Assembly: GCA_964609775.1 (NCBI GenBank)
Contig: CAZSSJ010000001.1
Span: 22,858 to 86,857 of the forward strand
DNA length: 64,000 nt
Source: an uncultured Gammaproteobacteria bacterium
GTDB lineage: Bacteria; Patescibacteriota; Microgenomatia; JAMCZE01
Reading direction: 5' to 3'
In this document: piece by piece, positions 5,946-21,971 of the stretch
Layout: the number at the start of each line of letters is the position of its first letter
Position numbering within the stretch: position 1 is the first letter of the stretch
Position numbers and translations under genes: made by a program
Notes under the pieces: model-generated
What the model was told of the DNA's origin: nothing
Database searches by the model: none
Seen by the model: only the letters and a program-made list of their open reading frames with translations

Positions 5946-8900
5946 GTGGATAGGAACAAAGCAAAGGGAAAGTACAAGAAGCTTTTAAAGATCGGCGAGG
6001 CTGCGGCTGTTCTTGGCGTTTCCATTGACACGCTGCGCCGGTGGGACCAGGAAGGCAAGTTGAGTTCAATTAAGACCCCCGGGGGGACGAGATATTACTC
6101 CCTGGGCGATTTGCGCAAGATTAACCCTGAAGTCGGGGAGATTATCAAAACAGAAAAGCAGGAAAGGGCGTTTGACCTGACAGCTCTTTCTGAGGAGGCG
6201 AGGCGGGAATATTTGGAAAGCCCGATTGGAAGCCGGGGTGGCCAGCTTGCTCGACCAGGTCAGTCAAAGCGCATCAGTGGGGTCAGTTACCCGAGTCAGG
6301 TGGCGAAAGAAGCAGAGGCTGGGCTTCGAGCGAGAAAGCTGGCCTTGGGGGCGGCTTTGGCTGCAGTTGTTATAGGGTTGGTAGCGACTGGGGTTGTGGC
6401 GCTTCGAGGGACAGGATTGTTTAGGGGGGATTTGGTGAAGACCGGGAGTGAGAGGGAAGGTGCGGGTGAGGTTCTAGCTATTACCGCAGGGAAGAGCTTT
6501 TTGGAGATCGGGGCGGAGACGGTGTTTAAGGATCGGGTCGACTTTGGCGGTTCGGCCGACGGCTTTTCCGTTTTTGGGGGAGACACGGTGTCGCGGCGGC
6601 TGACGGTGACGGGGGCGGATGTGGCCTTAGACCAATCTCTGACGGCATCGTCTTCGCCGACGTTTGCTTCTTTGAAGCTTAGCGGGACGAGTGATCAGAT
6701 TGTGGTTGGGGGAAACGGAACGCTGACTTGGACACCAACGGCGGCGCGGACGGTGACATTTCCCGACGCGACTGGAACGGTTGTTCTGGACACGGCCACT
6801 CAAACCCTGTCAAACAAGTCACTTTCCGGATCAAGTAACACCTTCACGAACATTCCGAATTCGGCGCTGTCGAACTCGAAGATTACCATCAATGCGGGAA
6901 CAAATCTGGGAGGCGGAGGGGATGTGTCCTTGGGATCGAGTGTAACCATTGACCTGGATGACGCTATTTCCCTGACGTCGGCGACTTTTTCCGGGACGCT
7001 GGGGGTCGGGGGAACGGCTTCGGTCGGCGGGCAGATCATTCTTGACGGAGCGACCGCGGAGATTAACGCCACGAATAACCGGCCGCTGGACTTGGGGTTT
7101 GAGAACACCGGGGCGGTGCGGTTTTTGAACTCGACCAACTATGTTGACAGCAATAATAACTTGTATATCAACGGAGTGTTGGTCGCGGGGCCGACGACAC
7201 AAGGTTATTGGCAGAGGAATTCCGGGGCTTTGGCCCCGACGAATATTACGGACTCTTTGGTCGTCGGGGGGACGGCGACGGCGTCGGGAAAGTTTCAAGT
7301 CTACGGACTGTCGGCTCTTAATCCGGTGGCGAGCATTTCGGGGAGTTCATCGAAGGCCGCGTTCATCGTAGATAACACTGTTGGGGATTTGTTTACCGCT
7401 TCCTCCTCCGGCCTCAACCGTTTTGTGATTACCCAGAATGGAAATGTGGGGATTGGGACAAGCGCTCCGGCCTATAAGCTCGATGTCAACGGGTCGACGA
7501 ATATTGCTAATGGGTTGACGATTGCGGCCGGGAACTTGACTTTGACCGGGTCGCAGTCAATTGACGCGACGGGGATTTTGTCCATCGGGACTTCTAACCA
7601 AACATCGCTTCTTATCGGCCGGGTTGGGGCGCCGACGACGATCTACGGCTCGTCGGTGACGATCAGCTCGAGCACGTTTAGCTCCAATGCGGCGACGATT
7701 TCCGGGACGCTCGGCGTCGGGGGCGAAGCTTCGTTTTCGGCCAAAATTATTCTGGATTCGCCAACCTCGGAGATTAATGCCACGAACAGGCGCTATTTGG
7801 ATCTGGGGTTCATGAACACCGGCGGCGTGCGCTTTCTTAATGACACAAACTACATCACTCCGAGCGGGGATCTGTATTTAGCCGGCAGTTTGATCAGTTC
7901 CGGGACACAGGCGGGCTTCTGGCAGCGGCCGGCGAGCACCGGAGCCCTGGCCCCGATAAATATTACTGACTCACTGCTGATCGGCGGCACGGCGACAAGT
8001 TCAGCAAAATTTCAAGTCTATGGTCTCTCAGCGTTAAATCCGGTGGCGTCAATTTCGGCTTCGTCGGCAGTCGCCGGGCTCATGGTGGACAACACCGTCG
8101 GGGATTTGTTTACGGCAAGCTCATCGGGCTTAAACCGGTTTGTGATTACCCAGAATGGAAATGTGGGGATTGGGACGACGGCTCCAGTTGGACTGCTTGA
8201 TGTCGCGGCAACGGCCCCCTTCGTTATCACTTCGGCGGGCCAGGTCGGCATCGGGACGACGAGCCCGGTGGGACTTCTTCATGTTCAGGGAGCGTGTGTC
8301 ACGGGAGACACGCTGATTCGAGTCCGGCGTAGGAAGAAGAAGAAAAATGGTGACTGGGAAGATGAATGGCTTGATTTGCCAATTAAGCAGCTTAAGGCGG
8401 GGGATGAAGTGATGACACTGGATGAAAGGACGGGGGAGTTTACTACCTCAGTGGTTCGGGAACTCATGGACAAAGGGATTAAAACGACCTTTAAACTGAT
8501 GACCGCTGACGGCAAATCCATCCGGACAACAGCGGAACATCCTTATTTGGTGCAGGAAAGTGGCAGCCCGGACAGTAATTTCCTCTCTGGACTGACTTTT
8601 GCTTCAGTGAAAAAGATCTCCCAAGATTACTATTTCACTGTCTTGTCGGGCCGGAAGGTGGCTGTTAAAGCATTGGACGGCGAGATTGTGCATTTCACTA
8701 GCGAAGGGTTCTCTCATATTACTCACGAGAAGAAGAGCGAATTTGAAATAATGACGAGACTTTTTGCTCTGTCTAAAGTTTTGACGGTTCTGGAAACAGG
8801 TGTCAAAGTTTCTCAGAAAGACAGAAAGATCGTTAACGGCAAAGTTAATGATTATTGGACTTTGGAGGAAGTTGTTGAGGGCGTTTTAACTAAAGTTGTT

Positions 8901-11900
8901 GTCAGGTCGATTGAGGACGGGCCGAAGCAATTTTTGTCAGTTGTTTGGAAGGATAAGACTCCGGAAGCCACAAAAAATGTGGGGGACGTTGCCTCTCGCA
9001 TATTGCAGCGACGTGGACGAATGGTTACGTCTCAACGTAGGGCCCACGAGAAGTTTTATACCACAATTCTGGCCGATTTGTCAAGAGGGGTCTGGGGATA
9101 TAGAGGGATTTCCTTAGCGCAAGACTTAGTTTCCAAAAAGAAATGGGTTAAAGTGCGGTTTTTGAAACCCGGCATGGAGATCGCTACTTTCGGGCCTGAT
9201 GGCCGAATTTCCTGGCAGAAGATTGAGTCCATTGAGAAAGTGGGAGAGGAGCAGGTTTATGACATCGAAGTGGAAAACACTCACAATTTTGTGGCCGGGC
9301 ACTATATAGACAACACCAACCAGAGGGCCCTAATTTCACAGGAAGGAGAGATTCTACTTCGTTATCTGTCTTTTGAACAAAAGGAAGCCGAGGAACAGGG
9401 CGATCATGACCAAAGCAAAACCAATTTGGAAACGATTGAAAAATTCTGTCAGGTCAATCATGATTTTTTGCTCCAACTGTCCAAAATAACCGCCGACAGT
9501 AGACAAATTGTAGCCGAACCAATATTGCCTGTCAACACCCAGGCGTCCTTAATGGCGAAAAGTCCCAAGAGCAGTCCGGCTGCCAAGTCGATAAATAAGG
9601 AAGAAAAAATCTTGAGAACGGAAACCCTCATCGAGGAGAGTATAGAAAAGGTGGAGAACCTTGTCAATCGTTACAGGAAAGGCGAAATTCGGTTCGGTGG
9701 CATTGTGGCGCATAACACGACGGGGAAGGCATTGGTGGATCTGAACTACACCGGGACGGATCAGGCAATTTTGACAGCTTCTGTTTCGGGGACCACGAAA
9801 TTTGTCATTAACAATTCCGGTCAAGTGGGAGTGGGAACCGGAGCAAACAACAATACTTTGCTGGCGGATGTGGATTTGCGGACGCTGACGAACACGGTTC
9901 CGGTGGCTTCAATTGCCGGAAGCACGGGAGTGGCAGCCTTGGTGGTGGACAACGTTTCCGGGGATTTATTTACAGCCAGTAGTTCGGGTTTGAGTCGTTT
10001 TGTGATAGATAGGGGAGGGAATGTGGGGATTTCCTCGACGGCGCCGTCACAGAAACTGGACGTGGTTGGGGCGGTGCGGTTGGGAGCTAACGGGGGGGCC
10101 AATGACATTTTGAACACGACGGTTGGGGGAAGTGCCCCGAGCGGGGTTTTGTATTGGGGAAACAGGACGCTGTGTGACACTTCCGGCAACTGTTCGGGAG
10201 TCGGGGGGATTGTGGCCGGGAGCGGAGTCCAATATTACATTAGCAAATGGACTGATGCTTCCGGCACGACAATCGGCGATTCACTGCTGTATGACCCGGG
10301 CACGTCGGTGGGACTCAACACCACCTCGCCGGCGGCGATTTTTGACATTCGGGGCACGCAGGGAACTTCGGCTCTCTCCGGGACTTTGCCGGTGGCCAGC
10401 ATTTCCGGGAAAACAAGTTTTGCGGCGGTGGTGGTGAACAACGATTCGACGGTCGGGGACCTCTTCACGGCTTCGGCGTCGGGGTTAAGCCGGTTTGTCA
10501 TCACCAATACGGGCAACGTGGGCATTGGCACGGCACTTCCGGCCCAGTTGCTCTCGGTCGCCGGGGCGATCCAGTTAGGGAGCGGTTTGGGAGCAAATGA
10601 TGTTCTGAATACTGCTGCTGCCGGGGGGGTGCCGTCGGGACTGCTCTATTGGGGCAGCCGGGAAGTCTGTGATGCTTCGGGCAACTGCGCCGGAGTGGGC
10701 GGGCAGGTCCAGGGGACGGGAACCCAAAACTATATTACCAAGTGGAACAATGCCGGGGGAACGGCGATCGGGGATTCGCTGCTGTATGATTCCGGCTCGG
10801 CGGTGGGTCTGGGAACAACCTCGCCTTTGGGGACACTCCATGTGGTTGGGCAGTGCGTCGTCTCTGGCACAAGGATTCGGCGGCGACGCCGTCGCCGAGG
10901 CTATGGCGCCCGAGGGGCGGAAGAGTGGGTTGAGGAGGAAGTGCCAATTGAGGAGATTGAGCCGGACGATGAAATTGTGTCATTGAACGTTGAGAAGGGG
11001 CGGTTTGAGTGGCACAAGGTGGAAAAGACCCTTAATAAGGGGCTGCTTGCCGGGATGGCCCTTTCGACTTCGACGGGGAAGAGAATCGTGACCACGGGCA
11101 AACATCCATACCTGATGATCGACAAACCGGAAATTACTCAAGGGACTTTTGAGGTTGACCAATCGATTAAAGTGGAAGATTTGGGCAAGGCGACAATTGT
11201 GGGCTTTGCTTTGGGAAAACTGGCCTTTGCGGTGAAACTTCGACAACAGGACAAAAAGTTGATCCGTAGTGGTTTTCAGAAAGCCGGTAAGGAAGATCTC
11301 TTTGCTCCTTTGACCTTTGCCAATGTAGTGGTTAATCTCTTCCGGGCGGCCCAGATCTATCCGGCTAGAATCGCGCTTGATGAAGAATACACCGGCTTTT
11401 TCGGGGAGATTAAAGATATTATTAAAAAGTCCTTCCCGGATGCAGAGGTTTTTGAGACTAATCTGAAAGATTCTTCAGCTGCTCATCAAAGGGTCTGGGC
11501 GGTCAACAAAGGGAGAGCGAAAGAGGATGTCCTCTTGGTTCTTGAGGGCGGAGAATTAAAAGAAAGGCCGGGAGTTAAATCAACTCTGAGCGGAAGACCT
11601 TTGCCCCTGAATGGTTACAGGGGGACCAGTCAACCCATCGGCCTTTACTATGGTGAATTCTATCACCGAGGGGCGAATTTGTCAACCCCTTCGACAAGCT
11701 CAGGGTTGATAGCGAGAAAGACCGAGCTATCAAGGGCTCGATGGGCCAAAGCTGGAGATATTAGGGTCGGTCAGTATGTGGCGACGGAGGATGGGTTTGA
11801 GAAAGTGACGGGGATTTCTGACGCCGGCCGGGTGCTGATGTACGACCTTTCCGTTGCTAACACCCACAACTTCCTCGCCAACGGGATTGTGGCCCATAAC

Positions 11901-14900
11901 ACCGGGACGATGGCGATCGCGACGGTTTCGGGGGCGACGTCTTTTGCGGCCCTCACCGTGGATAACTCCGGCGTCGGGGATTTGTTTACGGCCAGTTCGT
12001 CTGGCTTAAACAGGTTCGTGATTACCCAGAACGGCAACGTCGGCATCGGGACGACGGCTCCAGTTGGACTGCTTGATGTCGCGGCAACGGCCCCCTTCGT
12101 TATCACTTCGGCGGGCCAGGTCGGCATCGGGACGACCTCGCCGGTGGGACTGCTGCATGTCCAGGGGGCGTGTGTGACGGGGGACACATTGTTGAAACGA
12201 CGGCGTAAGAAATGGCGGACACGCAGGTCCGCCCCTACGGAAATGGGACCGGATCCAGAAGGGGATGCTGAATCCACCAAAAAATCCGCTTACGCGGACT
12301 TGGTAAACCAGATCGGCTTGCTAAATGGCTGGCTTGATACCCTTACGGGTAATATATCAGATGGTGATGAAATTGTCAAGGATCAGATGGGCATGGACCT
12401 GCCGGGAGTTGAACCCGGTAGGCTTGGGGTATCAAGCCAGCCTAGCAAACCTGCCAGGCCCATGCCAATGAATAGTATAGCAGACGATGGTGACTATTAC
12501 TGGGAAGATGTGCGGATTGATGAAATTGAGGCGGGGGATGAAGTGATGACCCTGGATGAAAAGAGCGGGGAGTTTGTAGCCAGCACGGTTAAACAATTGA
12601 TGGTGATGGGGAATAAAAAGATCATTAAACTGACAACCGAGAGTGGAAAGACCATTCGGACAACGGAAAAACACCCTTATCTGGTCAAGGTCAAAGGAGA
12701 AAATCAGAAAACAGCCTTCGCTTTCATTGATGAAACAGGAATTACACTTGATCCCGGCCAACACCATCTTGGGGTGGGGGCTCTTAATAAAAAGGAGGAT
12801 GGTGCCTTAAAAGACACGTTTTGTCAAGGGGGAGGGAAGGTGTTTTGGCGTCAAGTTTCAACTCTCAAACCGGGAATGTTGATCGCGACAGTTGATGGCT
12901 TTGAGAAGATTATCAGGATTGAGGAACTGCCCGAGGAGATGGTTTATGACATTGAAGTGGAAAACACCCACAATTTTGTGGCCGGGCACTATGTCGACCA
13001 GGCTTCACAGACGGCGTTAAAAGCGGAGGAGGAAAAGTTTCTCTGTCTTTATCAACAAAACACGTTAACGAGAGAGTTTTCTCTTTTCGACCTTACCGAA
13101 GAAAATCCAAGCCAGAAAAAGGGCAATAAGCCCCAATCCAACTCCTATCCAGGCAGCGATATAAAATTGATCCAAAGTGGTGATCATATGTTTTCAAATA
13201 GCCAGTCTTCTAATTTGATGGCTATCCAGCTACAGAGCGTAGCAAAGATGAGGTTTGCTGTCAAGGCCAAGATGGGGTTGGACGAAGCGAATGATGCAAA
13301 AGCACCAAATATGAACCCAGTGGATAGGTTTGAGAGTATAGATGAAACTACCTTGACTTGGCTAGGGCGAATATTAAAAGAAAACTCCATTAACTTGACT
13401 TTAGACGAAGCGCTTTGTCTTATCAATAAATATGAGTCTGGGGAAATTGTTTATGGGGGCATTGTGGCGCATAACACGACGGGGAAGGCCCTGGCGAATC
13501 TGAACTACACCGGAACCGATCAGGCAATCTTTACAGCTTCTCAGGGAGGAGTGTTGAAGTTTTCTCTTAATGGCATCGGAACAGAGCATACGGCTTCGGT
13601 GGCGGGGACAACGTCTAAGGCGGCTCTGATTGTGGACAACACAATCGGGGATTTGTTCACGGCCTCGTCATCGGGCTTGGCTCGCTTTGTGATAACACAA
13701 AGCGGCAATGTGGGGATTGGGTCCGCCGCTCCCAGCGTCGCTCTGGATGTCACCGGAGCGGGGAAGACGAGTGGGGCCTTTACGGTGGGGAATAATTTGA
13801 CGGTGACGGCCGGGGGCCTCACGGTGACGGCCGGGAACATTGCCCTGACGGGGTCGCAGACGATTGACGGGACCGGGACGCTGACAATTGGCGGCACTTC
13901 GCAGACGTCGCTGGCGTTGGGGAGGAGCGGGGCGCAGACGACGATTTCCGGCGGGCCGGTGGTCGTCAACGGCGCTTCCTTTGCCTCGGCAGGGACAACG
14001 ACATTCACCGGCGGGAATGTGGGGATCGGGACGACGACGGTGACGGATTTTGCTTTGGAGATGGGCGGGAGCATCGGGCCGGTGACGACCGATCAATATG
14101 ATTTGGGGTCGGCCGCTCTCGAATGGAATAATTTGTATGTCAAAAACATTATTTCAACGGGGACGACGGCCGGATTTTGGCAGCGGGCGTCGGGGGTGCT
14201 GGCTCCGCAGAACATTACAGACTCGCTGATTATTGGCGGGACGGCAACATCCTCCGGGAAATTCCAAGTTTACGGCCTATCGGCTCTTAATCCAGTGGCG
14301 AGCATTTCCGGGTCTTCGGCAGTGGCCGCGCTTATGGTCGATAACACAGTGGGAGATTTATTTACGGCCTCATCGTCGGGACTAAATCGGTTTGTGATTA
14401 CTCAAAATGGAAATGTGGGGATTGGGAGCACGGTTCCTGTATCACGGCTTGATACAGGAGGAGGAACAATTTCACTTAATGGTGGGTGGTTGTCGAATGA
14501 TGGTGGAGCTGAAGGTGTGTTTGTTAAAACAGACGGGAATGTGGGTATCGGGACAAGTGCACCAGCCTATAGGCTTGATGTCGTCCACACCACACCGACT
14601 GCGGCAAATGGCAGTGTGTCACCAGATCAAATAGGATTGAGGGTTAACAGGGCCCACTATGTTGGGACCCCTGGACCCTACCCTAATGCTGTTTATGGCG
14701 TTTTGGGTCAAGGCCAAGCAGGTCAGGGGAGTGCCAGTGTGTCTTATTCCAATACGGTGGGTGCTAGAGGTGTGGCTGGACAAGCAATTGTCAATGTTAC
14801 GGGTGGTGCCAGTGTTACGGGTGCAAGTTCATTGTATGCGTTGAATGCTACGATTACTGCTGGAACTTTATCTAATCAATATGGATTATATGTTGAGTCG

Positions 14901-17900
14901 TTATCCGGGGCCTCCAACAATTATGGAGTTTATGTTGCTGGTAATAATTCCTCGTATTTTGGCGGCAACGTCGGCATCGGGACGACGAGCCCGGTGGGAC
15001 TGCTGCATGTCCAGGGGGCGTGCGTGACGGGGGACACCTTGTTAAAAAGACGACGGAAGCGGAAGAGCAAATATGGTGATTGGGAGGAAGACTATTGGGA
15101 AGACATTAGAATTGATGAGATCGAGGCGGGAGACGAAATATTAACTTTTGACGAAACCACTGGCGGATTTACTGCTTCTCAGGTTAGGGAGCTTATGGAT
15201 ATGGGTAAAAAGACCACGTTTAAGTTGGTAACGGAGGGCGGAAAGGAAATTCGGACGACAGCGAACCATCCTTACTTGGTCAAGTCAGCCAATACGAGTA
15301 ATTTCTTCAATGAGACTTTTAAAGTTGTGGCAGAAATTGCCAGGGCCTATTACTTTGCCACTTTAACGTCCTGGGATCCGATTGCTCCGGCCCTGAATAA
15401 TGAGAGAATAAGTATTTCTGAGGAAGGATGGCATCATCTTCATCATAAAGCCAGAAGCAGGGGAGAAATGTTGACGAGGTATTTTGCACTTCCCAAAGCG
15501 GCCGCTCTTCTTGCCAGCAAAGAAGCTCGCGTGACTTATGAACCCGGTGGGGATGGGGTCTCCGAGTTTTGGTCCCTTTATGGAACAGTTGATGATGTTC
15601 AGGTTAAGGTGGTTGTCCGATCAGTCAATAAAGGTCCGAAGTACTTTTACTCTGTCATCTGGAAGAGCGAAGTTAAAGAAGACACTAAAAAAAGAGCTGC
15701 CTCCTGCTTGTATCCGCAGTGTGGGGGAGTGATTACCCCTCAGCTCTTTAATGAGAGGATTATAGACCAGATGAGTGACTTTGTCAAGAAACGAAAGAGA
15801 GACTACCAGCTGGGCTCGTATCTCTCTGGGGAAGATTCTACTACTAAGTGGGTGAAAGTCAAACAATTAAAGCCCGGGATGGAAATTGCCACGGTGGGCG
15901 GGGATGACCAGATTTCTTGGCAGAAGATCAAATCTATTGAAAAAATCGGGGAAGAACAAGTCTTCGACATCGAAGTGGAAAACACCCACAATTTTGTGGC
16001 CAATGGGATTGTGGCGCATAACACGACGGGGAAGGCCTTGGCGAATTTGAACTATACGGGGACGGATCAGGCGATTTTCACCGCTTCGCAGGGGGGAACG
16101 TTGAAGTTTGCTTTGAATGGGACGGGGACGGATTTTACCGCCAGCGTCGCCGGGACGACTTCGAAGGCGGCTCTCATTGTGGACAACACCGTCGGGGATT
16201 TGTTTACGGCCAGCTCCAGTGGCTTAAACAGATTCGTGATTACCCAGAATGGAAATGTGGGCATTGGAATGGCGACGCCTTCTGCTACATTGGAAGTTAG
16301 AAAAGGTCCAATTCCCTCAACATTTGATTCATCTCTTGCTCTCTATTCTGCTGGTCAGTTTGTCAACACGAACACTAACTGGTATGACACGGAATTAAAT
16401 TTACTTGATACTAGGGACCAAGCTGCAGGAGTTGGCGGAAGGCTTGCTTTCGGTGGCGTTTATAGACAAGTTGGGACTACCAATGTAACAACCTTTGCGG
16501 CGATTGGCGGTTATAAAGAGAATTCTACTAGTGGTGATTATGCTGGATATCTCTCGTTTGAAACCAGACCTAACGGTGGAATTTTTACTGAACAGATGAG
16601 AGTTTCTAGTGCTGGCAACGTCGGCATCGGGACGACGAGCCCGGTGGGACTGCTGCATGTTCAGGGGGCGTGCGTGACAGGGGATACTCTGATTCGAGTA
16701 AGACGGCGCAAGAAGAAGAAGAATGGCGAGTGGGAAGATGAATGGCTGGACGTTCCCATTAAAGATATTCAAGCTGGGGACGAAGTGGCCACTCTGGACG
16801 AAAAGACGGGAGAATTCATCGTCTCCAAGGTTAAACAATTAATGAACATGGGGAGAAAAGTGGTCTTTGAACTTTTGACTGAGTCAGGAAAAGTCGTTAA
16901 AACTACAGAAAATCATCCGTATTTGGTTGACCAATCAGGGAAACAAATGGTCTCTGATCTCAGTGCTATCCAGAAGGAAACTTATGAGTTTGCTGAGAAG
17001 TTAGGAAAGAAATACTATGTGAACAACTTGGCTGGCAGGAAGGTTAAGTCTAGGGCTTTGGGCGAATTTGTCGAGTTTAGTCATTCTGGCTGGAACCATT
17101 TTGTGGAGAAAAGCCATTCAATTAATGAACTTATTACTCGATTCTTTGCTTTGCCTCGGGTGGTTACAGTTATCAGATCTAGTCCCCATGTCACTTCATA
17201 TAACATAGTCGAGAAAAAAGACATGACGATTGAATATTGGGAGTTGCAGGAAATTATTGACCATGTTCTTGTTAAAGTTCTAGTCTGCGCTGTTGATGGT
17301 GGACCGAAGTTTTTCTTGACGTGCACTTGGCTCGGGACAAAAGAGAATGAAGGGGTCAAACCAACTAAAAAAGAGCTGTCTCTCTCGCCTAGATCCCGCG
17401 AAATGCAGGACCAGTTGGGTCGACGTCGGGAACTGGTTATCCCTCAGCTCTTTAGTAGGGTGATTATACCAAAGAAAGTCAAGTGGGTCAAGGTCAAGGA
17501 TTTGACTGTAGGTGTGACTATTGCTACCAAAGATGGCTGGGAGAAAGTAGTTTCCATTAAAAAATTGGATGAACAACAAGTTTATGACATTGAAGTGGAA
17601 AACACCCACAATTTCGTGGCCAATGGGATCGTGGCGCATAACACGACGGGCAAGGCCTTGGTGGATCTGAACACCACCGGAGATCAGGCGGTCTTTACGG
17701 CTTCAGTTTCTGGAACGACGAAATTTGTGATTAACAATTCGGGGCAGGTGGGAGTAGGGACGGGGGCAAACAACAATACCCTTTTGGCGGATGTGGATTT
17801 GCGGACGCTGACAAACACTGTACCGGTGGCTTCAATTTCCGGAAGCACCGGAGTGGCAGCATTGGTGGTGGACAATGTTTCCGGCGATGTGTTTACGGCG

Positions 17901-20900
17901 TCAACTTCGGGATTGAGCCGGTTTGTGATTGACAAGAACGGAAATGTGGGGATCGGGAGTTCGGCTCCAGGATACAAACTGGATGTTTCGGGAACGGCTC
18001 ATGTCACCGGAGCAGTCACTTTAGATACGGCCCTGACGGTGGCCAATGGGGGGACGGGAGCCCAGACATTCACAGACAACGGCGTGCTCTTTGGCAACCT
18101 GACGGCCGCCATTGGAGCGACGGCCGAAGGAGCGACCGGGCAGTGCCTCATCGGGAACACCGGGAGCGCGCCATCATGGTCAGCATGTACCACGGCCTCA
18201 GGGCAGTTGTGGCAGGAAGCTTTGGGAGTGGTCGCGCCGCTGAACATCACGGATTCCCTGATTATTGGGAAGATCGCGACACCCAGCGGGGCCATTACCT
18301 CGGGCAGCATGCAGATTTACGGGGTGAACAACCTGACCCCGGTCGCCTCTATTTCGGGGGTCAGTGCGGTGGCGGCGCTCATCGTGGACAACACCGGCGG
18401 GGATGTCTTCACGGCCAGCACTTCGGGACTGACCAGATTTGTGATTGACAAGAACGGCAACGTCGGGATTGGGACAACGAGCCCGGATTATCCACTTGTA
18501 GTAGTAGGGACAGCTTCTGACGGAACACGGACACTTGAGGTAAAAAATTCAGTTGCTGGTAGTATATCTAATTTCCAAGTAACAGGTGATGGTGTCAACG
18601 CTCGCCTTATGGCGTTGTCTAGTTCGTATTCATCATCCGGGGCTTATGCTGCTGATACAGTTGTCTTAGACGACGATCAGGGTTACGCTGCTGGCCTTAC
18701 ACTACTTGCCCGTAATTCAAGTGGGTATATCCGAATGTTTACAGGCGGTTTTGATGACGGAAATGAGCGTCTGAGAATTAACAGCACTGGCAACGTCGGC
18801 ATCGGGACGACGAGTCCGGTGGGACTGCTGCATGTTCAGGGACAATGCGTCATTGCCGGAACAAAAATTAAAAGAAGAAAGAAGAAAGAAAAAAGAAGAA
18901 AGCAAGACACTGCCGGAACGGGGCCGGATCCGGTCGGCGATTGGGACTATGAAGATGTTCCCATCGAACAGATCGAACCGGATGATGAGATTCTTTCCCT
19001 AAACCAGGAAAAGGGCCAGTTTGAGTGGCACAAGGTGGAACAAACCATGAATAAAGGACTCCTGCCGGCCTTGGCTCTGACAACTTCTACTGGAAAGAGA
19101 ATTGTCACGACGGCAAAACATCCATATTTGGCGATCGATCGGCCGGAAACTACTCAAGGGACTTTTGAGGTGGATCAATCAATCAAGATCGAGAATTTGG
19201 GGGCGGCAAGCATTATAGGGTTTGCCCTGGGGAAACTAGCTTTTGCCGTTAAGCTGCCGCAGAAGGATAAGAAGATTATTCTCGCTCGTTATCAGAAGAA
19301 GAACCAAAAAGATGTTTTTGCCCATGAGACTTTTGCCCGATGTGTGGTTGCCGCCTTTAAGATTGCCCGGATTTATCCAGCGAGAATTGCTCTCGATGAA
19401 GAATACACCAGTTACTTCCGAAGAATCGAGAGCGTTATTAAGGAAAGTTTCCCTGACAGCGAGATTTTTCAAACCAACCTTAAGGATGGTTCCGCCGCCC
19501 ACAAAAAGGTCTGGGCTGTTAATAGGGGAATTTTAAGAGAGGATGCTGTTCTAAGTTTGGAATCGGGAGAATTAAAAGAAAGGCCGGGGGTTAAATCAAC
19601 CTTCAGAATGCCTTTGCCCCTGGTTGGTTACAGGGGGACCAGTCATCCACACGGCCTTTACTATGGAGAATTCTACTCCACGGAGCGGGAATTGTCAAGA
19701 GCAAAGTGGGTTAAGGCCGCGGAGGTTAGGAAAGGGATGTGTGTGGCGACGGAGGATGGTTTTGAGAAGGTCACAGGGATTTCCGATGCGGGGCAGGTGG
19801 CGATGTATGATCTGCAAATTGCCAACACTCACAATTTTGTGGCCAATGGGATTGTGGCGCATAACACGACGGGGAAGGCCCTGGTGGATCTGAACACCAC
19901 CGGGGACCAGGCGGTGTTCACCGCCAGTGTTTCCGGAAACACCAAGTTTGTGATTAACAATTCAGGACAGGTGGGAGTGGGAACCGGAGCAAACAACAAC
20001 ACGCTGCTGGCCGATGTGGATTTGCGGACGCTGACAAACACGGTTCCGGTGGCTTCAATTGCCGGGAGCACGGGGGTGGCGGCTCTGGTTGTGGACAATA
20101 CAGCCGGGGATCTTTTCACCGCCTCGTCAAGTGGGCTATCAAGATTTGTGATTGACAAGAACGGGAATGTGGGGATTGGGACGGCGGCGCCGACGGCTCT
20201 GGTGTCTTTAGCTAACTCGAACTATACGACGCAAAACATGTTGAACGTGGCGGGGACGTCGACAGGGTTGACGACCGGGTCACTGGCGAGTTTTGACTGG
20301 AGTCCGACGGACTGGTCGACCTCGAGCGGGAATTTGGTGAATATTAATCTTGGCAGTTTGGCCGACACGACGGGAAACATCTTTAATATTTCCGATGACG
20401 GCAGCTCGATCTTCTCGGTTTCGCCGCAGCAGATTGTCAACTCGTTGCCAACGTCATTTAATGCCGCCGGAGATGTGGCGATTGCCTATGACATTAATTT
20501 CACCAATCCGACGGCATCATACATTAAATCTGCTGCACCCATGTATTTGCAGGCAGGGGAGCTATTTAATTCCTCGGATTTGACGTTGAAGACCTTTAAC
20601 AAAGGCTTGATTGTTCTGGATCCAGATGAAGCGGTCACAATTGATGGGGCGGCTTCTGTGTCGGGGCAGCTCATGGTCGGCAGTACGACAGCGGCGCCGG
20701 CGCAGTTTGGCAAGTTCTATGTGACGGACTCTAACACGGCCACTTCTTCAGCCTTCATTGAAAACACTAACACAGCTGCAGCAATTTCGGGTTTGGTCAT
20801 TAAGCTGGGGAGTACGACCCTGGACACCACCTCGCATTTTGTTAATTTTCTTGATTTGAACGGCAAGATGATTGGCAACATTCGGGCAGCTAACACGACA

Positions 20901-21923
20901 ACGGTTGCTTATCAGACAAGCGGAATTGCGGATTTTGGGGAATGGATGAAAGTTTCTTCGGATTTGACTAATTTGTCTAATTGGACCAATTTGGTTTCTC
21001 CGGGGACGATTGTTTGTCAAAGCGCGGATGGGGTGGAGCCCTGCGAGGCGAGTGAGTCGGCGAGGATGGCGGGGGTGACTTCTGACACGACGGCGTTTTT
21101 GGGAGGAGAGGAGAAAGACGGAAGCGTGGTTGTCGGAATGTTGGGACAAATTCGAGTGAAGATCGCAACGGACTCAGCGCAAATTGAGCCGGGTGACGCG
21201 ATTGGGGTGGCGATCGCCGGTTTGGGAAAGAAAATTACGTCACGGGGATATGTGGTCGGCCGGGCGATGGAATCATGGTCCTCCGGACAAGAGAAAGTCT
21301 TAGTTTATGTCAACCCCGGTTACTTTGAGGGCCCCGAGTCGCAGCTGGCGTCGAAACTCTCGGTGGATGAGATTCAGGAACAGGTGGCGTCGATCAGTGC
21401 AAATTTGACTAATTTGTCTAATTGGTCCAATTTGAACAGCGACGAATTTGCGACGGTTTCGGGAAACCTGAAAGTTTTGGGAATGACGGAGCTTTCCAAC
21501 ACGACGATTGGCGGGTCGCTCACTGTGGGACTGGTCCATGTTGATGATTTGCTGGGCGATGTTTCCGGTTTGAATGGGAGTTTGAGTTTGCAAAACGGGA
21601 TGCTGACAATTAGTCAAATTGGACAAATTGGTCAAATTGGGGTTAACGGCGATTTGACAGTTTCCGGGGAGTTGACGGCGAAGAAGATTAACGTGCCGAC
21701 GGGAGTGGCTGGGGCCTCGGCGGGCAAGGCGACGATTCTTGCTGGACAAAGCGAAATTGAGATTACGACCAGCGCGCTTAGTGCTAATTCCTTGATTTTT
21801 GCGACACCGGAAGACGTGCCGGTGGCCGTCTCGACGACCAAGACAGCGACAGACAAGTTTAAGATCAAACTGGACTCCCCTGCGGGGGCAAACATCAAAA
21901 TTAATTGGTGGATAATCAATTAG
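5946..21923 (+). CDS. Giant repetitive surface protein (5,325-aa precursor; 3,069 aa after removal of six inteins)
   Basis: Single uninterrupted ORF with a GTG start. Many ...DLFTASSSGLNRFVITQNGNVGIGT... repeats. C-terminal ...GMLGQIRVKIATDSAQIEPGDAIG... module. Confidence 0.9.
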   Translation: MDRNKAKGKYKKLLKIGEAAAVLGVSIDTLRRWDQEGKLSSIKTPGGTRYYSLGDLRKINPEVGEIIKTEKQERAFDLTALSEEARREYLESPIGSRGGQLARPGQSKRISGVSYPSQVAKEAEAGLRARKLALGAALAAVVIGLVATGVVALRGTGLFRGDLVKTGSEREGAGEVLAITAGKSFLEIGAETVFKDRVDFGGSADGFSVFGGDTVSRRLTVTGADVALDQSLTASSSPTFASLKLSGTSDQIVVGGNGTLTWTPTAARTVTFPDATGTVVLDTATQTLSNKSLSGSSNTFTNIPNSALSNSKITINAGTNLGGGGDVSLGSSVTIDLDDAISLTSATFSGTLGVGGTASVGGQIILDGATAEINATNNRPLDLGFENTGAVRFLNSTNYVDSNNNLYINGVLVAGPTTQGYWQRNSGALAPTNITDSLVVGGTATASGKFQVYGLSALNPVASISGSSSKAAFIVDNTVGDLFTASSSGLNRFVITQNGNVGIGTSAPAYKLDVNGSTNIANGLTIAAGNLTLTGSQSIDATGILSIGTSNQTSLLIGRVGAPTTIYGSSVTISSSTFSSNAATISGTLGVGGEASFSAKIILDSPTSEINATNRRYLDLGFMNTGGVRFLNDTNYITPSGDLYLAGSLISSGTQAGFWQRPASTGALAPINITDSLLIGGTATSSAKFQVYGLSALNPVASISASSAVAGLMVDNTVGDLFTASSSGLNRFVITQNGNVGIGTTAPVGLLDVAATAPFVITSAGQVGIGTTSPVGLLHVQGACVTGDTLIRVRRRKKKKNGDWEDEWLDLPIKQLKAGDEVMTLDERTGEFTTSVVRELMDKGIKTTFKLMTADGKSIRTTAEHPYLVQESGSPDSNFLSGLTFASVKKISQDYYFTVLSGRKVAVKALDGEIVHFTSEGFSHITHEKKSEFEIMTRLFALSKVLTVLETGVKVSQKDRKIVNGKVNDYWTLEEVVEGVLTKVVVRSIEDGPKQFLSVVWKDKTPEATKNVGDVASRILQRRGRMVTSQRRAHEKFYTTILADLSRGVWGYRGISLAQDLVSKKKWVKVRFLKPGMEIATFGPDGRISWQKIESIEKVGEEQVYDIEVENTHNFVAGHYIDNTNQRALISQEGEILLRYLSFEQKEAEEQGDHDQSKTNLETIEKFCQVNHDFLLQLSKITADSRQIVAEPILPVNTQASLMAKSPKSSPAAKSINKEEKILRTETLIEESIEKVENLVNRYRKGEIRFGGIVAHNTTGKALVDLNYTGTDQAILTASVSGTTKFVINNSGQVGVGTGANNNTLLADVDLRTLTNTVPVASIAGSTGVAALVVDNVSGDLFTASSSGLSRFVIDRGGNVGISSTAPSQKLDVVGAVRLGANGGANDILNTTVGGSAPSGVLYWGNRTLCDTSGNCSGVGGIVAGSGVQYYISKWTDASGTTIGDSLLYDPGTSVGLNTTSPAAIFDIRGTQGTSALSGTLPVASISGKTSFAAVVVNNDSTVGDLFTASASGLSRFVITNTGNVGIGTALPAQLLSVAGAIQLGSGLGANDVLNTAAAGGVPSGLLYWGSREVCDASGNCAGVGGQVQGTGTQNYITKWNNAGGTAIGDSLLYDSGSAVGLGTTSPLGTLHVVGQCVVSGTRIRRRRRRRGYGARGAEEWVEEEVPIEEIEPDDEIVSLNVEKGRFEWHKVEKTLNKGLLAGMALSTSTGKRIVTTGKHPYLMIDKPEITQGTFEVDQSIKVEDLGKATIVGFALGKLAFAVKLRQQDKKLIRSGFQKAGKEDLFAPLTFANVVVNLFRAAQIYPARIALDEEYTGFFGEIKDIIKKSFPDAEVFETNLKDSSAAHQRVWAVNKGRAKEDVLLVLEGGELKERPGVKSTLSGRPLPLNGYRGTSQPIGLYYGEFYHRGANLSTPSTSSGLIARKTELSRARWAKAGDIRVGQYVATEDGFEKVTGISDAGRVLMYDLSVANTHNFLANGIVAHNTGTMAIATVSGATSFAALTVDNSGVGDLFTASSSGLNRFVITQNGNVGIGTTAPVGLLDVAATAPFVITSAGQVGIGTTSPVGLLHVQGACVTGDTLLKRRRKKWRTRRSAPTEMGPDPEGDAESTKKSAYADLVNQIGLLNGWLDTLTGNISDGDEIVKDQMGMDLPGVEPGRLGVSSQPSKPARPMPMNSIADDGDYYWEDVRIDEIEAGDEVMTLDEKSGEFVASTVKQLMVMGNKKIIKLTTESGKTIRTTEKHPYLVKVKGENQKTAFAFIDETGITLDPGQHHLGVGALNKKEDGALKDTFCQGGGKVFWRQVSTLKPGMLIATVDGFEKIIRIEELPEEMVYDIEVENTHNFVAGHYVDQASQTALKAEEEKFLCLYQQNTLTREFSLFDLTEENPSQKKGNKPQSNSYPGSDIKLIQSGDHMFSNSQSSNLMAIQLQSVAKMRFAVKAKMGLDEANDAKAPNMNPVDRFESIDETTLTWLGRILKENSINLTLDEALCLINKYESGEIVYGGIVAHNTTGKALANLNYTGTDQAIFTASQGGVLKFSLNGIGTEHTASVAGTTSKAALIVDNTIGDLFTASSSGLARFVITQSGNVGIGSAAPSVALDVTGAGKTSGAFTVGNNLTVTAGGLTVTAGNIALTGSQTIDGTGTLTIGGTSQTSLALGRSGAQTTISGGPVVVNGASFASAGTTTFTGGNVGIGTTTVTDFALEMGGSIGPVTTDQYDLGSAALEWNNLYVKNIISTGTTAGFWQRASGVLAPQNITDSLIIGGTATSSGKFQVYGLSALNPVASISGSSAVAALMVDNTVGDLFTASSSGLNRFVITQNGNVGIGSTVPVSRLDTGGGTISLNGGWLSNDGGAEGVFVKTDGNVGIGTSAPAYRLDVVHTTPTAANGSVSPDQIGLRVNRAHYVGTPGPYPNAVYGVLGQGQAGQGSASVSYSNTVGARGVAGQAIVNVTGGASVTGASSLYALNATITAGTLSNQYGLYVESLSGASNNYGVYVAGNNSSYFGGNVGIGTTSPVGLLHVQGACVTGDTLLKRRRKRKSKYGDWEEDYWEDIRIDEIEAGDEILTFDETTGGFTASQVRELMDMGKKTTFKLVTEGGKEIRTTANHPYLVKSANTSNFFNETFKVVAEIARAYYFATLTSWDPIAPALNNERISISEEGWHHLHHKARSRGEMLTRYFALPKAAALLASKEARVTYEPGGDGVSEFWSLYGTVDDVQVKVVVRSVNKGPKYFYSVIWKSEVKEDTKKRAASCLYPQCGGVITPQLFNERIIDQMSDFVKKRKRDYQLGSYLSGEDSTTKWVKVKQLKPGMEIATVGGDDQISWQKIKSIEKIGEEQVFDIEVENTHNFVANGIVAHNTTGKALANLNYTGTDQAIFTASQGGTLKFALNGTGTDFTASVAGTTSKAALIVDNTVGDLFTASSSGLNRFVITQNGNVGIGMATPSATLEVRKGPIPSTFDSSLALYSAGQFVNTNTNWYDTELNLLDTRDQAAGVGGRLAFGGVYRQVGTTNVTTFAAIGGYKENSTSGDYAGYLSFETRPNGGIFTEQMRVSSAGNVGIGTTSPVGLLHVQGACVTGDTLIRVRRRKKKKNGEWEDEWLDVPIKDIQAGDEVATLDEKTGEFIVSKVKQLMNMGRKVVFELLTESGKVVKTTENHPYLVDQSGKQMVSDLSAIQKETYEFAEKLGKKYYVNNLAGRKVKSRALGEFVEFSHSGWNHFVEKSHSINELITRFFALPRVVTVIRSSPHVTSYNIVEKKDMTIEYWELQEIIDHVLVKVLVCAVDGGPKFFLTCTWLGTKENEGVKPTKKELSLSPRSREMQDQLGRRRELVIPQLFSRVIIPKKVKWVKVKDLTVGVTIATKDGWEKVVSIKKLDEQQVYDIEVENTHNFVANGIVAHNTTGKALVDLNTTGDQAVFTASVSGTTKFVINNSGQVGVGTGANNNTLLADVDLRTLTNTVPVASISGSTGVAALVVDNVSGDVFTASTSGLSRFVIDKNGNVGIGSSAPGYKLDVSGTAHVTGAVTLDTALTVANGGTGAQTFTDNGVLFGNLTAAIGATAEGATGQCLIGNTGSAPSWSACTTASGQLWQEALGVVAPLNITDSLIIGKIATPSGAITSGSMQIYGVNNLTPVASISGVSAVAALIVDNTGGDVFTASTSGLTRFVIDKNGNVGIGTTSPDYPLVVVGTASDGTRTLEVKNSVAGSISNFQVTGDGVNARLMALSSSYSSSGAYAADTVVLDDDQGYAAGLTLLARNSSGYIRMFTGGFDDGNERLRINSTGNVGIGTTSPVGLLHVQGQCVIAGTKIKRRKKKEKRRKQDTAGTGPDPVGDWDYEDVPIEQIEPDDEILSLNQEKGQFEWHKVEQTMNKGLLPALALTTSTGKRIVTTAKHPYLAIDRPETTQGTFEVDQSIKIENLGAASIIGFALGKLAFAVKLPQKDKKIILARYQKKNQKDVFAHETFARCVVAAFKIARIYPARIALDEEYTSYFRRIESVIKESFPDSEIFQTNLKDGSAAHKKVWAVNRGILREDAVLSLESGELKERPGVKSTFRMPLPLVGYRGTSHPHGLYYGEFYSTERELSRAKWVKAAEVRKGMCVATEDGFEKVTGISDAGQVAMYDLQIANTHNFVANGIVAHNTTGKALVDLNTTGDQAVFTASVSGNTKFVINNSGQVGVGTGANNNTLLADVDLRTLTNTVPVASIAGSTGVAALVVDNTAGDLFTASSSGLSRFVIDKNGNVGIGTAAPTALVSLANSNYTTQNMLNVAGTSTGLTTGSLASFDWSPTDWSTSSGNLVNINLGSLADTTGNIFNISDDGSSIFSVSPQQIVNSLPTSFNAAGDVAIAYDINFTNPTASYIKSAAPMYLQAGELFNSSDLTLKTFNKGLIVLDPDEAVTIDGAASVSGQLMVGSTTAAPAQFGKFYVTDSNTATSSAFIENTNTAAAISGLVIKLGSTTLDTTSHFVNFLDLNGKMIGNIRAANTTTVAYQTSGIADFGEWMKVSSDLTNLSNWTNLVSPGTIVCQSADGVEPCEASESARMAGVTSDTTAFLGGEEKDGSVVVGMLGQIRVKIATDSAQIEPGDAIGVAIAGLGKKITSRGYVVGRAMESWSSGQEKVLVYVNPGYFEGPESQLASKLSVDEIQEQVASISANLTNLSNWSNLNSDEFATVSGNLKVLGMTELSNTTIGGSLTVGLVHVDDLLGDVSGLNGSLSLQNGMLTISQIGQIGQIGVNGDLTVSGELTAKKINVPTGVAGASAGKATILAGQSEIEITTSALSANSLIFATPEDVPVAVSTTKTATDKFKIKLDSPAGANIKINWWIIN
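5982..6404 (+). other. N-terminal MerR/excisionase-type HTH (aa 13-58) plus a single TM helix (aa 132-153) of the giant protein
   Basis: LLKIGEAAAVLGVSIDTLRRWDQEGKLSSIKTPGGTRYY matches the HTH_17/MerR pattern. LALGAALAAVVIGLVATGVVAL is a hydrophobic span. Confidence 0.6.
8295..9716 (+). mobile_element. Intein 1 (474 aa): class-A insert plus a 133-aa insertion between blocks F and G
   Basis: Starts CVTGDTLI after LHVQGA. Block B TTAEHPYLV, block F VYDIEVENTHNFVAG, ends GGIVAHN followed by Thr. Confidence 0.85.
10854..11900 (+). mobile_element. Intein 2 (349 aa): class-B insert
   Basis: Starts CVVSGTRI after LHVVGQ. Block B TTGKHPYLM, block F MYDLSVANTHNFLA, ends NGIVAHN followed by Thr. Confidence 0.85.
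12171..13475 (+). mobile_element. Intein 3 (435 aa): about 100-aa insertion after block A and a 157-aa insertion between blocks F and G
   Basis: Starts CVTGDTLL. Block B TTEKHPYLV, block F VYDIEVENTHNFVAG, ends GGIVAHN followed by Thr. Confidence 0.85.
15021..16022 (+). mobile_element. Intein 4 (334 aa): class-A insert
   Basis: Starts CVTGDTLL. Block B TTANHPYLV, block F VFDIEVENTHNFVA, ends NGIVAHN followed by Thr. Confidence 0.85.
16671..17642 (+). mobile_element. Intein 5 (324 aa): class-A insert
   Basis: Starts CVTGDTLI. Block B TTENHPYLV, block F VYDIEVENTHNFVA, ends NGIVAHN followed by Thr. Confidence 0.85.
18846..19865 (+). mobile_element. Intein 6 (340 aa): class-B insert
   Basis: Starts CVIAGTKI after LHVQGQ. 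Block B TTAKHPYLA, block F MYDLQIANTHNFVA, ends NGIVAHN followed by Thr. Confidence 0.85.
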
Positions 21924-21971
21924 GCTGGCTTGCCCTGAGCTTGTCGAAGGGTGGATTGTGAATTAACGAAA

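Follow-up and report, generated by a model that had tools for sequence, protein, structure and literature searches.

Two inteins of a Patescibacteria surface-protein gene appear to carry an antisense two-gene cassette in their last hairpin

The stretch of DNA discussed here (“the window”) consists of 64,000 nucleotides of contig CAZSSJ010000001.1, from an uncultured bacterium of the Patescibacteriota, or candidate phyla radiation (CPR), and is the part of the host genome that was covered. It contains a giant gene for a surface-type protein interrupted by six inteins (Table 1). All six start with a cysteine after LHV(Q/V)G(A/Q) and end in (G)IVAHN followed by a threonine, and the Pfam Intein_splicing and TIGR intein N- and C-terminal models match every intein tested. 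In inteins 2, 4, 5 and 6, the last two splicing blocks, F and G, are contiguous and read NTHNF(V/L)ANGIVAHN. Inteins 1 and 3 carry long in-frame inserts between these two blocks, and it is these F-G inserts that concern us: they appear to house, on the opposite strand, a small two-gene unit, here called orfAB, preceded by a promoter-like site of its own.

Table 1. Positions in the window of the intein-bearing gene, its inteins, and the parts of the two F-G inserts.
Feature	Position	Strand	Description
Host gene	5946..21923	+	15,978-nt open reading frame, 5325 aa; repeat-rich surface-type protein with N-terminal helix-turn-helix-like segment and six inteins
Intein 1	8295..9716	+	474 aa, Cys1 to GIVAHN, then Thr+1
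Block F of intein 1	9255..9299	+	VYDIEVENTHNFVAG
F-G insert, intein 1	9300..9698	+	133 aa, open in intein frame
Putative transcription unit, cassette 1	9354..9667	-	promoter to orfB stop
orfB, cassette 1	9354..9461	-	35 aa; MIDLTEFFNRFQIGFALVMIALFLGFLLFKRQITK; one predicted membrane helix, basic tail; ATG overlaps orfA TGA (ATGA)
orfA, cassette 1	9458..9631	-	57 aa, ATG...TGA; MRVSVLKIFSSLFIDLAAGLLLGLFAIKDAWVLTGNIGSATICLLSAVILDSWSKKS; two predicted membrane helices
Promoter-like site, cassette 1	9639..9667	-	TTGACA-17 nt-TATACT, 11/12; -10 box ends 7 nt before orfA ATG
Block G of intein 1	9699..9716	+	GIVAHN; Thr+1 at 9717-9719
Intein 2	10854..11900	+	
Intein 3	12171..13475	+	435 aa; mini-type core plus N-terminal insert and F-G insert
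F-G insert, intein 3	12987..13457	+	157 aa, open in intein frame
Putative transcription unit, cassette 3	13065..13426	-	promoter to orfB stop
orfB, cassette 3	13065..13187	-	40 aa; MITTLDQFYIAAWIGVGLGLIALFLAWIFFGKVEKRKLSR; ATGA overlap with orfA
orfA, cassette 3	13184..13390	-	68 aa from conserved ATG; MEFSFNIRPSQVKVVSSILSNLSTGF...AIKLEDWLFENI
Promoter-like site, cassette 3	13398..13426	-	TTGATA-17 nt-TAAAGT; -10 box ends 7 nt before orfA ATG
Intein 4	15021..16022	+	
Intein 5	16671..17642	+	
Intein 6	18846..19865	+	

A sequence-only reading of the window had placed these inserts between NTHNFVA(G) and GIVAHN, called the site unusual, and proposed that they might inactivate or regulate splicing or be a nested element. 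Their positions and lengths are confirmed. The site is indeed unusual, since F and G are contiguous in the closest solved inteins (NpuDnaB 4o1r, Spl DnaX 7cfv, and Ssp DnaB 1mi8) and the alignments stop at the insert; the family models likewise go no further, TIGR01443 matching over positions 2–17 of 24 and ending at residue 337 of intein 1. The shared ends that had been noticed, HYxD and GEIxFG, are borne out. The two inserts, whose interiors had been described as different, are homologous over their full length and not at their ends alone (BLASTP, 25% identity, E=7e-7). A search of metagenomes, also suggested at that time, found homologous inserts at the identical position in independent metagenome contigs, which rules out an assembly artefact. 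The G+C content of the inserts (~42–44%) is near that of the inteins (~45%) and unlike that of the exteins (55–63%).

What, then, do the inserts encode? No Pfam or NCBIfam model matches either of them at E<=1, whether LAGLIDADG, HNH or other nuclease, and in the absence of any in-frame nuclease or known family, a homing endonuclease or accessory domain was rejected on family grounds; Rfam finds no structured RNA in them (E<=1). A word-indexed homologue search with both inserts returned nothing, while an exhaustive profile search matched only other intein inserts and shadow open reading frames (ORFs). Among the latter are three small “proteins” (P0052, P0053, and P0059) that cover only the middle of the insert. 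One of these, P0053, is intergenic (locus L004), and there the opposite strand holds two small hydrophobic ORFs, a pair shared with both inserts of the window.

In each insert, this pair makes up a putative minus-strand transcription unit: a promoter-like site followed by orfA, with two hydrophobic segments by hydropathy, and orfB, with one such segment and a basic tail. The orfA ATG, the 4-nt overlap between the orfA TGA and the orfB ATG, and a TAA or TAG stop for orfB are found in all eight copies first examined (the two in the window and six elsewhere), and the structure is identical in L018 and L019–L021. The ATGA overlap also occurs in most loci of an orfA-guided scan, the exceptions being L009 (11-nt overlap), L031 (GTGA), and L032–35 (TTAA). 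Across the family, orfA products are 57–72 and orfB products 35–48 residues long. The orfA product has the motifs ..NLAAGW.. and ..VLTGN.., which are degenerate in cassette 3 (NLSTGF, ALTAN). Embedded copies have TTGACA-17-TATAnT before orfA, the version in intein 3 being weaker, and the placing of the -10 box 7 nt before the orfA ATG recurs in L005, L006a, L006b, L008, L014, and L018; the orfA transcript would therefore be leaderless. A promoter scan of the intein 1 region gives four promoter-like sites against 0.3 expected from shuffles. The sense-frame L(V/I)N(R/K)Y motif near the insert ends is simply what the -35 box encodes when read on the complementary strand.

Terminal repeats or a target-site duplication around the cassette were also sought, with only short two-copy matches found, none of them common to both inserts. 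An 11-nt direct repeat around cassette 3 (13049-13059, 13420-13430) was considered as a duplication and set aside: it has no counterpart at cassette 1 and is probably due to chance. The THNFV codons of block F (window 12968-12981, and their equivalents in other inteins) are palindromic (CCACAAAATTGTGG), and a scan picks this palindrome out as a terminator-like sequence of the minus strand, immediately downstream of the cassette; the conserved motif may give rise to it by coincidence.

Outside inteins, orfAB has a life of its own. An orfA profile detects stand-alone annotated proteins of 60–72 residues (E=2e-15 to 1e-8), which are followed by orfB and lie among housekeeping genes (L009, L010). 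The closest relative of the orfA of cassette 1 is one of these free-standing copies, at 63% identity (L010/P0060). A scan of GTDB species genomes, with a 7-sequence alignment as the query, adds six more free-standing copies, from Collier-, Davies-, Gottesman- and Curtissbacteria, Saccharibacteria, and one bin labelled Gammaproteobacteria. No gene neighbourhood common to the free-standing copies was found, and a phage origin finds no support in IMG/VR, where orfAB has no relative. Public gene calls at L004, L007, and L008 (P0053, P0059, and P0052) are on the wrong strand and correspond to the open shadow frame of orfAB; at L007, the called frame runs on into the beginning of a surface protein encoded downstream. 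At L007 and L008 (42-1300), the free-standing cassette adjoins a gene for an NYN domain, a domain that fills the mid site of many related inteins. At L008, the N-terminal segment of the downstream gene (..KNQRGEIATVLTLIS..GLVVGNVAV..) is present three times around the cassette and the NYN gene, which looks like a duplication made on insertion.

Inside inteins, two sites are occupied. DNA evidence places antisense cassettes at the F-G site in inteins 1 and 3 of the window, L005 (P0048), L006b (P0049), L018 (P0051), and L021 (with an internally deleted orfA), and at the canonical mid site, where endonucleases usually reside, just after block B in L006a, L019, L020/L021, and L028; the shadow peptide is seen at the mid site in P0058, P0054, P0017, P0024, P0047, and P0028 as well. 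A metagenome scan guided by orfA, in which the shadow frame plays no part, places at least 3 of its 16 loci within inteins. All embedded copies are antisense, as expected, because a cassette lying in sense would interrupt the host ORF with its two stops and its change of frame. Embedded orfA copies usually have free-standing copies as their nearest relatives, which tentatively suggests several captures or escapes, the sequences being short. One intein (L021, 1180-2200) has a full cassette at the mid site plus an F-G cassette in which orfA is internally deleted (MSFSFVGAMLFLSLAFKIERFLDKL) and orfB intact; an intein of L006 (P0049) carries two cassettes as well. Metagenome contig Ga0209102_1000129 (L022, ~2400-2900) carries orfAB antisense and in frame in a long ORF without intein motifs, the shadow peptide ...TEPNQPAAKFVNNPDNVL... 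lying within an uninterrupted translation of at least 800 residues; the cassette may thus nest in ordinary genes too.

The cassette does not account for the whole insert. In insert 1, the first ~18 residues (HYIDNTNQRALISQEGEI) and the last ~10 (RYRKGEIRFG) are the intein's own hairpin extension, and the rest is the shadow frame of the cassette. Intein 1 has its closest relatives exclusively among the inteins of CPR surface-repeat proteins, and several of these inteins have extra residues between HNFVAG and GGI(V/I)AHN: 14 in P0046, 46 in P0037, ~55 in P0011, ~88 in P0054, ~150 in P0048, and ~215 in P0049. These extensions all start with H(Y/L/M) and finish with (F/Y)GG. A loop common at this position in known inteins, which the sequence-only reading had named as counting against it, therefore exists within this CPR clade but not in solved inteins. 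An AlphaFold2 model of intein 1 (19-sequence alignment; mean predicted local distance difference test (pLDDT) score 76.7) has a confident core with the HINT horseshoe fold, matching NpuDnaB 4o1r with a template-modelling score of 0.83 over the target and also Hedgehog 1at0. The model joins NFVAGHYID and EIRFGGIVAHN in a single lengthened hairpin with extended strands E331-339 and E465-473, and for that reason the HYxD and GEIxFG ends are assigned to the intein. It further predicts helices at 348-368, 377-406, and 435-461 and disorder at 404-433 in the insert, the helices being weak evidence because very few homologues of the insert are in the alignment.

Does such an insert abolish splicing? 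Both inteins start with CVTGDT, have the block B TxxH as RTTAEHPYL or RTTEKHPYL, match TIGR01445 and PF14890, and carry the class 1 motifs VYDIEVENTHNFVAG (block F) ... GIVAHN, then T. Cys1, TxxH, the block F Asp/His, His-Asn, and Thr+1 are all retained and the frame is uninterrupted. Among engineered S11 split inteins, in which the C-fragment is only six residues long, 4 of the 14 tested splice (PMC3620165); backbone continuity at the F-G loop is therefore not required. With the catalytic residues intact and a normal modelled HINT core, inteins 1 and 3 probably still splice, the read-through peptide being a tolerated protrusion, and the proposed inactivation is not borne out; splicing may be slower or regulated.

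The F-G loop receives other cargo in two relatives. In L001 (9300-9600, P0015) and L019 (1380-2000, P0057), it contains a complete sense-strand PF05635 gene with its own stop, beyond which the intein continues as ...KDIEFGGIVAHN or ...EDIMFGGIVAHN in another ORF or frame; block A is missing from L001 as well. PF05635 is the family of the 23S rRNA intervening-sequence protein, a four-helix bundle. Such inteins may be dead, or they may be naturally split, with a very short C-fragment; no natural split intein with a C-fragment as short as this is known to us. In P0054, a sequence of ~50 residues (IDLINLIDLISK...LEQLEIRNS) occurs twice within one intein, at residues ~175-230 in the insert after block A and ~485-540 in the F-G insert, which hints that the two loops lie close together or exchange sequence.

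If two frames overlap on opposite strands, which of them is under selection? Cassette 1 and the free-standing copy of L010 share 68% DNA identity, and the similarity does not extend beyond the orfA-orfB coding sequence. The strands can be distinguished in the orfB region because their codons are exactly complementary there. The orfB frame has 18 synonymous and 7 non-synonymous differences, or proportions pS 0.99 and pN 0.11; read in the intein-sense frame, the same bases give pS 0.17 and pN 0.30, with three stops in L010. This comparison covers 27 codons of one sequence pair, and the codon-position pattern over 5–8 copies agrees with it: mismatches in the minus frame follow the order 3>1>2, including among the five intein-embedded copies alone, and the order persists when the plus frame guides the alignment. 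Amino-acid identity across copies is 0.34 in the minus frame vs 0.23 in the plus frame. Together these comparisons point to purifying selection on the minus (orfAB) frame, as tested for orfB.

Opposite the cassette, only one reading phase can be stop-free. After synonymous recoding, the probability that this permitted shadow phase is open is 0.05–0.44 per copy and jointly ~2.5e-4 for the five embedded copies, and the sense frame is in fact open in every embedded copy. A shadow frame that is always open, that is universal dual coding, was rejected: stops interrupt it in the free-standing copies L009, L010, L012, and L014.

In our view, inteins 1 and 3 carry an antisense orfAB cargo cassette inserted in the lengthened F-G hairpin of a CPR intein clade, a reading to which we give a probability of about 0.78; that an antisense orfAB unit is nested inside a clade-specific hairpin extension is well supported. 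The sequence-only reading was thus right about a nested element and did not foresee its form, which is neither a nested intein, an endonuclease, nor a sense-strand domain, but a candidate opposite-strand operon of two genes. The following course of events can be proposed. The last beta-hairpin of the clade (block F strand, turn, and block G strand) is lengthened, and a self-contained cassette with a sigma-70-like promoter would have been inserted antisense at the tip of the extension, encoding orfA and then the ATGA-coupled orfB. That the orfAB operon stands free in other CPR genomes makes it cargo rather than splicing machinery. Because the single stop-free phase is in register with the intein, host protein and intein would still be translated through the cassette. 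The resulting hydrophilic polypeptide, helical or disordered, would project from the hairpin tip and leave with the intein on splicing, which would make the insertion harmless to the host protein. The cassette itself would be transcribed and translated in situ, the intein would serve as a safe haven or vehicle, and the cargo would move with the intein or stabilize it.

Several points weigh against this reading. The promoter is a match to the sigma-70 consensus only, and CPR promoters are poorly characterized; no convincing or conserved intrinsic terminator was found after orfB in the embedded copies. Across the orfA region, both strands have their wobble positions at the same bases, and the selection test cannot separate the strands there; the minus-frame signature could also partly be history from before capture. 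The deleted orfA of L021 indicates that decay does happen, and the modelled insert helices offer little help, for the reason already given. Finally, neither orfA nor orfB belongs to a Pfam, NCBIfam, PHROG, PADLOC, or PDB-profile family, all matches being at noise level: one orfB resembles a PHROG holin (E=0.007) and one orfA resembles PDC-M18B (E=8e-5), and both were discarded since they are not repeated in other family members.

For want of a family match, the function of orfAB is a matter of guesswork, and our best guess is that the two small membrane proteins act like a holin or a toxin, or in some other way that penalizes loss of the intein DNA. In a functional variant of the preferred reading, orfAB would be an addiction module resembling type I toxin-antitoxin systems: the host sense mRNA, fully complementary to the orfAB mRNA, would repress it as an antisense RNA, making the cell depend for its survival on keeping or transcribing the intein-bearing gene. 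The orfB product has the build of many type I toxins (35–45 residues, with a basic tail and a single membrane helix), the cassette is antisense wherever it is embedded, and it is strongly associated with selfish elements. Set against this, the free-standing copies, surrounded by housekeeping genes, have no evident antisense partner, known toxin families give no match, no viral copies were found, and as a sense insertion breaks the host ORF anyway, survivorship alone explains the antisense bias; we hold this variant to be rather unlikely.

Alternatively, the cassette might be a passenger whose expression has ceased, either captured recently or in decay, and a neutral filler kept only as its shadow frame happened to be open. 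The internal orfA deletion in the F-G copy of L021 and the want of a clear terminator would fit, and with a chance of 5–44% per copy, an open permitted phase is not rare. Against this, embedded copies at 30–45% identity still keep their ORFs, starts, ATGA junction, and near-consensus promoters, the 3>1>2 codon pattern appears among them alone, and in L018, the cassette is intact next to a disrupted N-terminal part of the intein. On this evidence, decay is an unlikely account of cassettes 1 and 3.

A sense-strand accessory domain, for instance a helical stalk for DNA binding, dimerization, or splicing control, would turn the minus-strand ORFs into a by-product of hydrophilic sense sequence. Inteins with homing endonucleases are known to bear accessory domains (PMC8966425), the sense frame is open in every embedded copy, and the long helices modelled at 348-368 and 435-461 have pLDDT values of ~75-88. 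Yet where the strands are separable, it is the sense frame that is unconserved (pN 0.30 vs pS 0.17; identity 0.23 vs 0.34 for the minus strand), free-standing homologues have stops in the equivalent frame, the insert matches no protein family, and a by-product would leave unexplained why all copies keep the orfA ATG, the ATGA overlap, and a promoter-like site 7 nt before that ATG, so that such a domain is very improbable. The idea that the true C-terminal junction lies elsewhere, or that inteins 1 and 3 are inactive or splice in trans, can draw on the PF05635 gene and stop codon interrupting the loop in L001 and L019, where the intein resumes in another frame, and on database gene calls that begin within the insert, but is scarcely credible for the window, where one frame runs unbroken from Cys1 to GIVAHN+T through both inserts and the TTGKAL extein motif resumes as it does after the insert-free inteins, and the one such gene call checked in DNA (P0051, L018) has an open upstream frame.

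How does a nested antisense orfAB cassette compare with known systems? Known passengers of inteins are in-frame, sense-strand nuclease or accessory domains lying between blocks B and F at the pseudo-two-fold axis (PMC8966425). Nested-endonuclease inteins such as PI-SceI, PI-PfuI, and TliVMA are alike in that extra genetic material within HINT is excised and travels with the intein, but there it becomes a domain of the intein, whereas the cassette sits at the F-G tip, on the opposite strand, with a promoter-like site and starts of its own, and would encode separate small membrane proteins that are merely read through. Engineered S11 split inteins show experimentally that the position occupied by the inserts, just before the last beta-strand (block G), tolerates interruption (PMC3620165); theirs are artificial breaks, while here the chain is continuous with 133–157 residues added, and the PF05635 genes of L001 and L019 provide a natural chain break at the F-G loop.

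Further afield, the palindromic elements of Rickettsia are reportedly selfish DNA lying in frame within protein-coding genes. They resemble the cassette as short, mobile-looking DNA in ORFs that keeps the frame and yields a tolerated surface peptide (compare L022), and differ from it in being non-coding palindromic repeats of ~100-150 bp, the cassette being ~310-360 bp long, with two opposite-strand proteins and no terminal repeats found. Antisense dual-coding pairs of bacteria likewise have both strands open and at least one frame under purifying selection. Those reported are mostly single ORFs overprinted in an older gene, and many are disputed; here, instead, a pre-existing two-gene operon with free-standing homologues has been placed within a protein element that excises itself. 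A parallel is offered by PF05635 genes in rRNA intervening sequences, in that cargo lies in a segment removed from the mature product, and PF05635 also occupies the F-G loop of relatives; removal there takes place at the RNA level by rRNA processing, and the cassette of the window is an unrelated membrane-protein pair. With type I toxin-antitoxin systems, orfAB shares only size, hydrophobicity, and convergent arrangement. Literature searches for antisense genes in inteins, CPR/Patescibacteria inteins as such, and NYN-domain inteins came back empty, and no published description of an antisense two-gene unit nested in an intein was found.

Other features of the intein-bearing gene deserve mention. 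All six inteins sit at one repeated extein motif, ..GIGT(T/S)SP.G.LHV.G(A/Q) / intein / T(T)GKAL.., all six have a polybasic run directly after block A (e.g., RVRRRKKKK), and none has a recognizable homing endonuclease. Inteins 1, 4, and 5 share a mid domain (weak LPD3 match, E=0.003), and inteins 2 and 6 share another that is also present in P0004, P0023, and P0030. The N-terminal insert of intein 3 contains, on the minus strand (12390-12466), an element resembling a tRNA, in which GGCAUGG/CCAUGCC makes up an acceptor-like stem of 7 bp and CCGGGUUCAACUCCCGG a T-arm; it matches Rfam mascRNA-menRNA at 28.6 bits (E=4.6e-4, under the gathering score), and ARAGORN finds no tRNA in it. Because its sense peptide LPGVEPGRLG resembles AGVEPARP and GGIEPPG of the related inteins P0014 and P0015, antisense tRNA-like sequences may be another recurrent intein passenger. 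A second giant ORF of 2038 aa (21951-28067) follows the intein-bearing gene directly on the same strand.

A wider and distinctly more speculative picture, which we put forward as a possibility only, would make orfAB a selfish or mobile cassette that colonizes self-excising elements, and sometimes other long ORFs, antisense and in the one register that leaves the host frame open. Endonuclease-free inteins would then persist through their cargo, be it an addiction module or a useful membrane function, with the host mRNA possibly acting as antisense regulator, and the F-G hairpin would be a dedicated second cargo site, also holding PF05635 genes in relatives, where these would create natural split inteins with very short C-fragments.

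In practical terms, the inserts offer intein engineering a natural insertion-tolerant loop and possible natural split inteins with very short C-fragments. They are also a warning for annotation, as gene callers overlook orfAB within inteins and, where it is free-standing, call its shadow frame as the protein (P0052, P0053, and P0059). For intein biology, the last hairpin emerges as another permissive site, in which an independent opposite-strand operon with a putative promoter resides, and ~300 bp of DNA would be under two overlapping coding requirements. If expressed, orfAB would be among the clearest cases of opposite-strand dual coding in bacteria, because its antisense genes have free-standing homologues and a measurable selection signature. 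Expression would also suggest how endonuclease-free inteins might persist, by holding cargo, and that inteins, like rRNA intervening sequences, are safe havens for small genes in the reduced genomes of the CPR.

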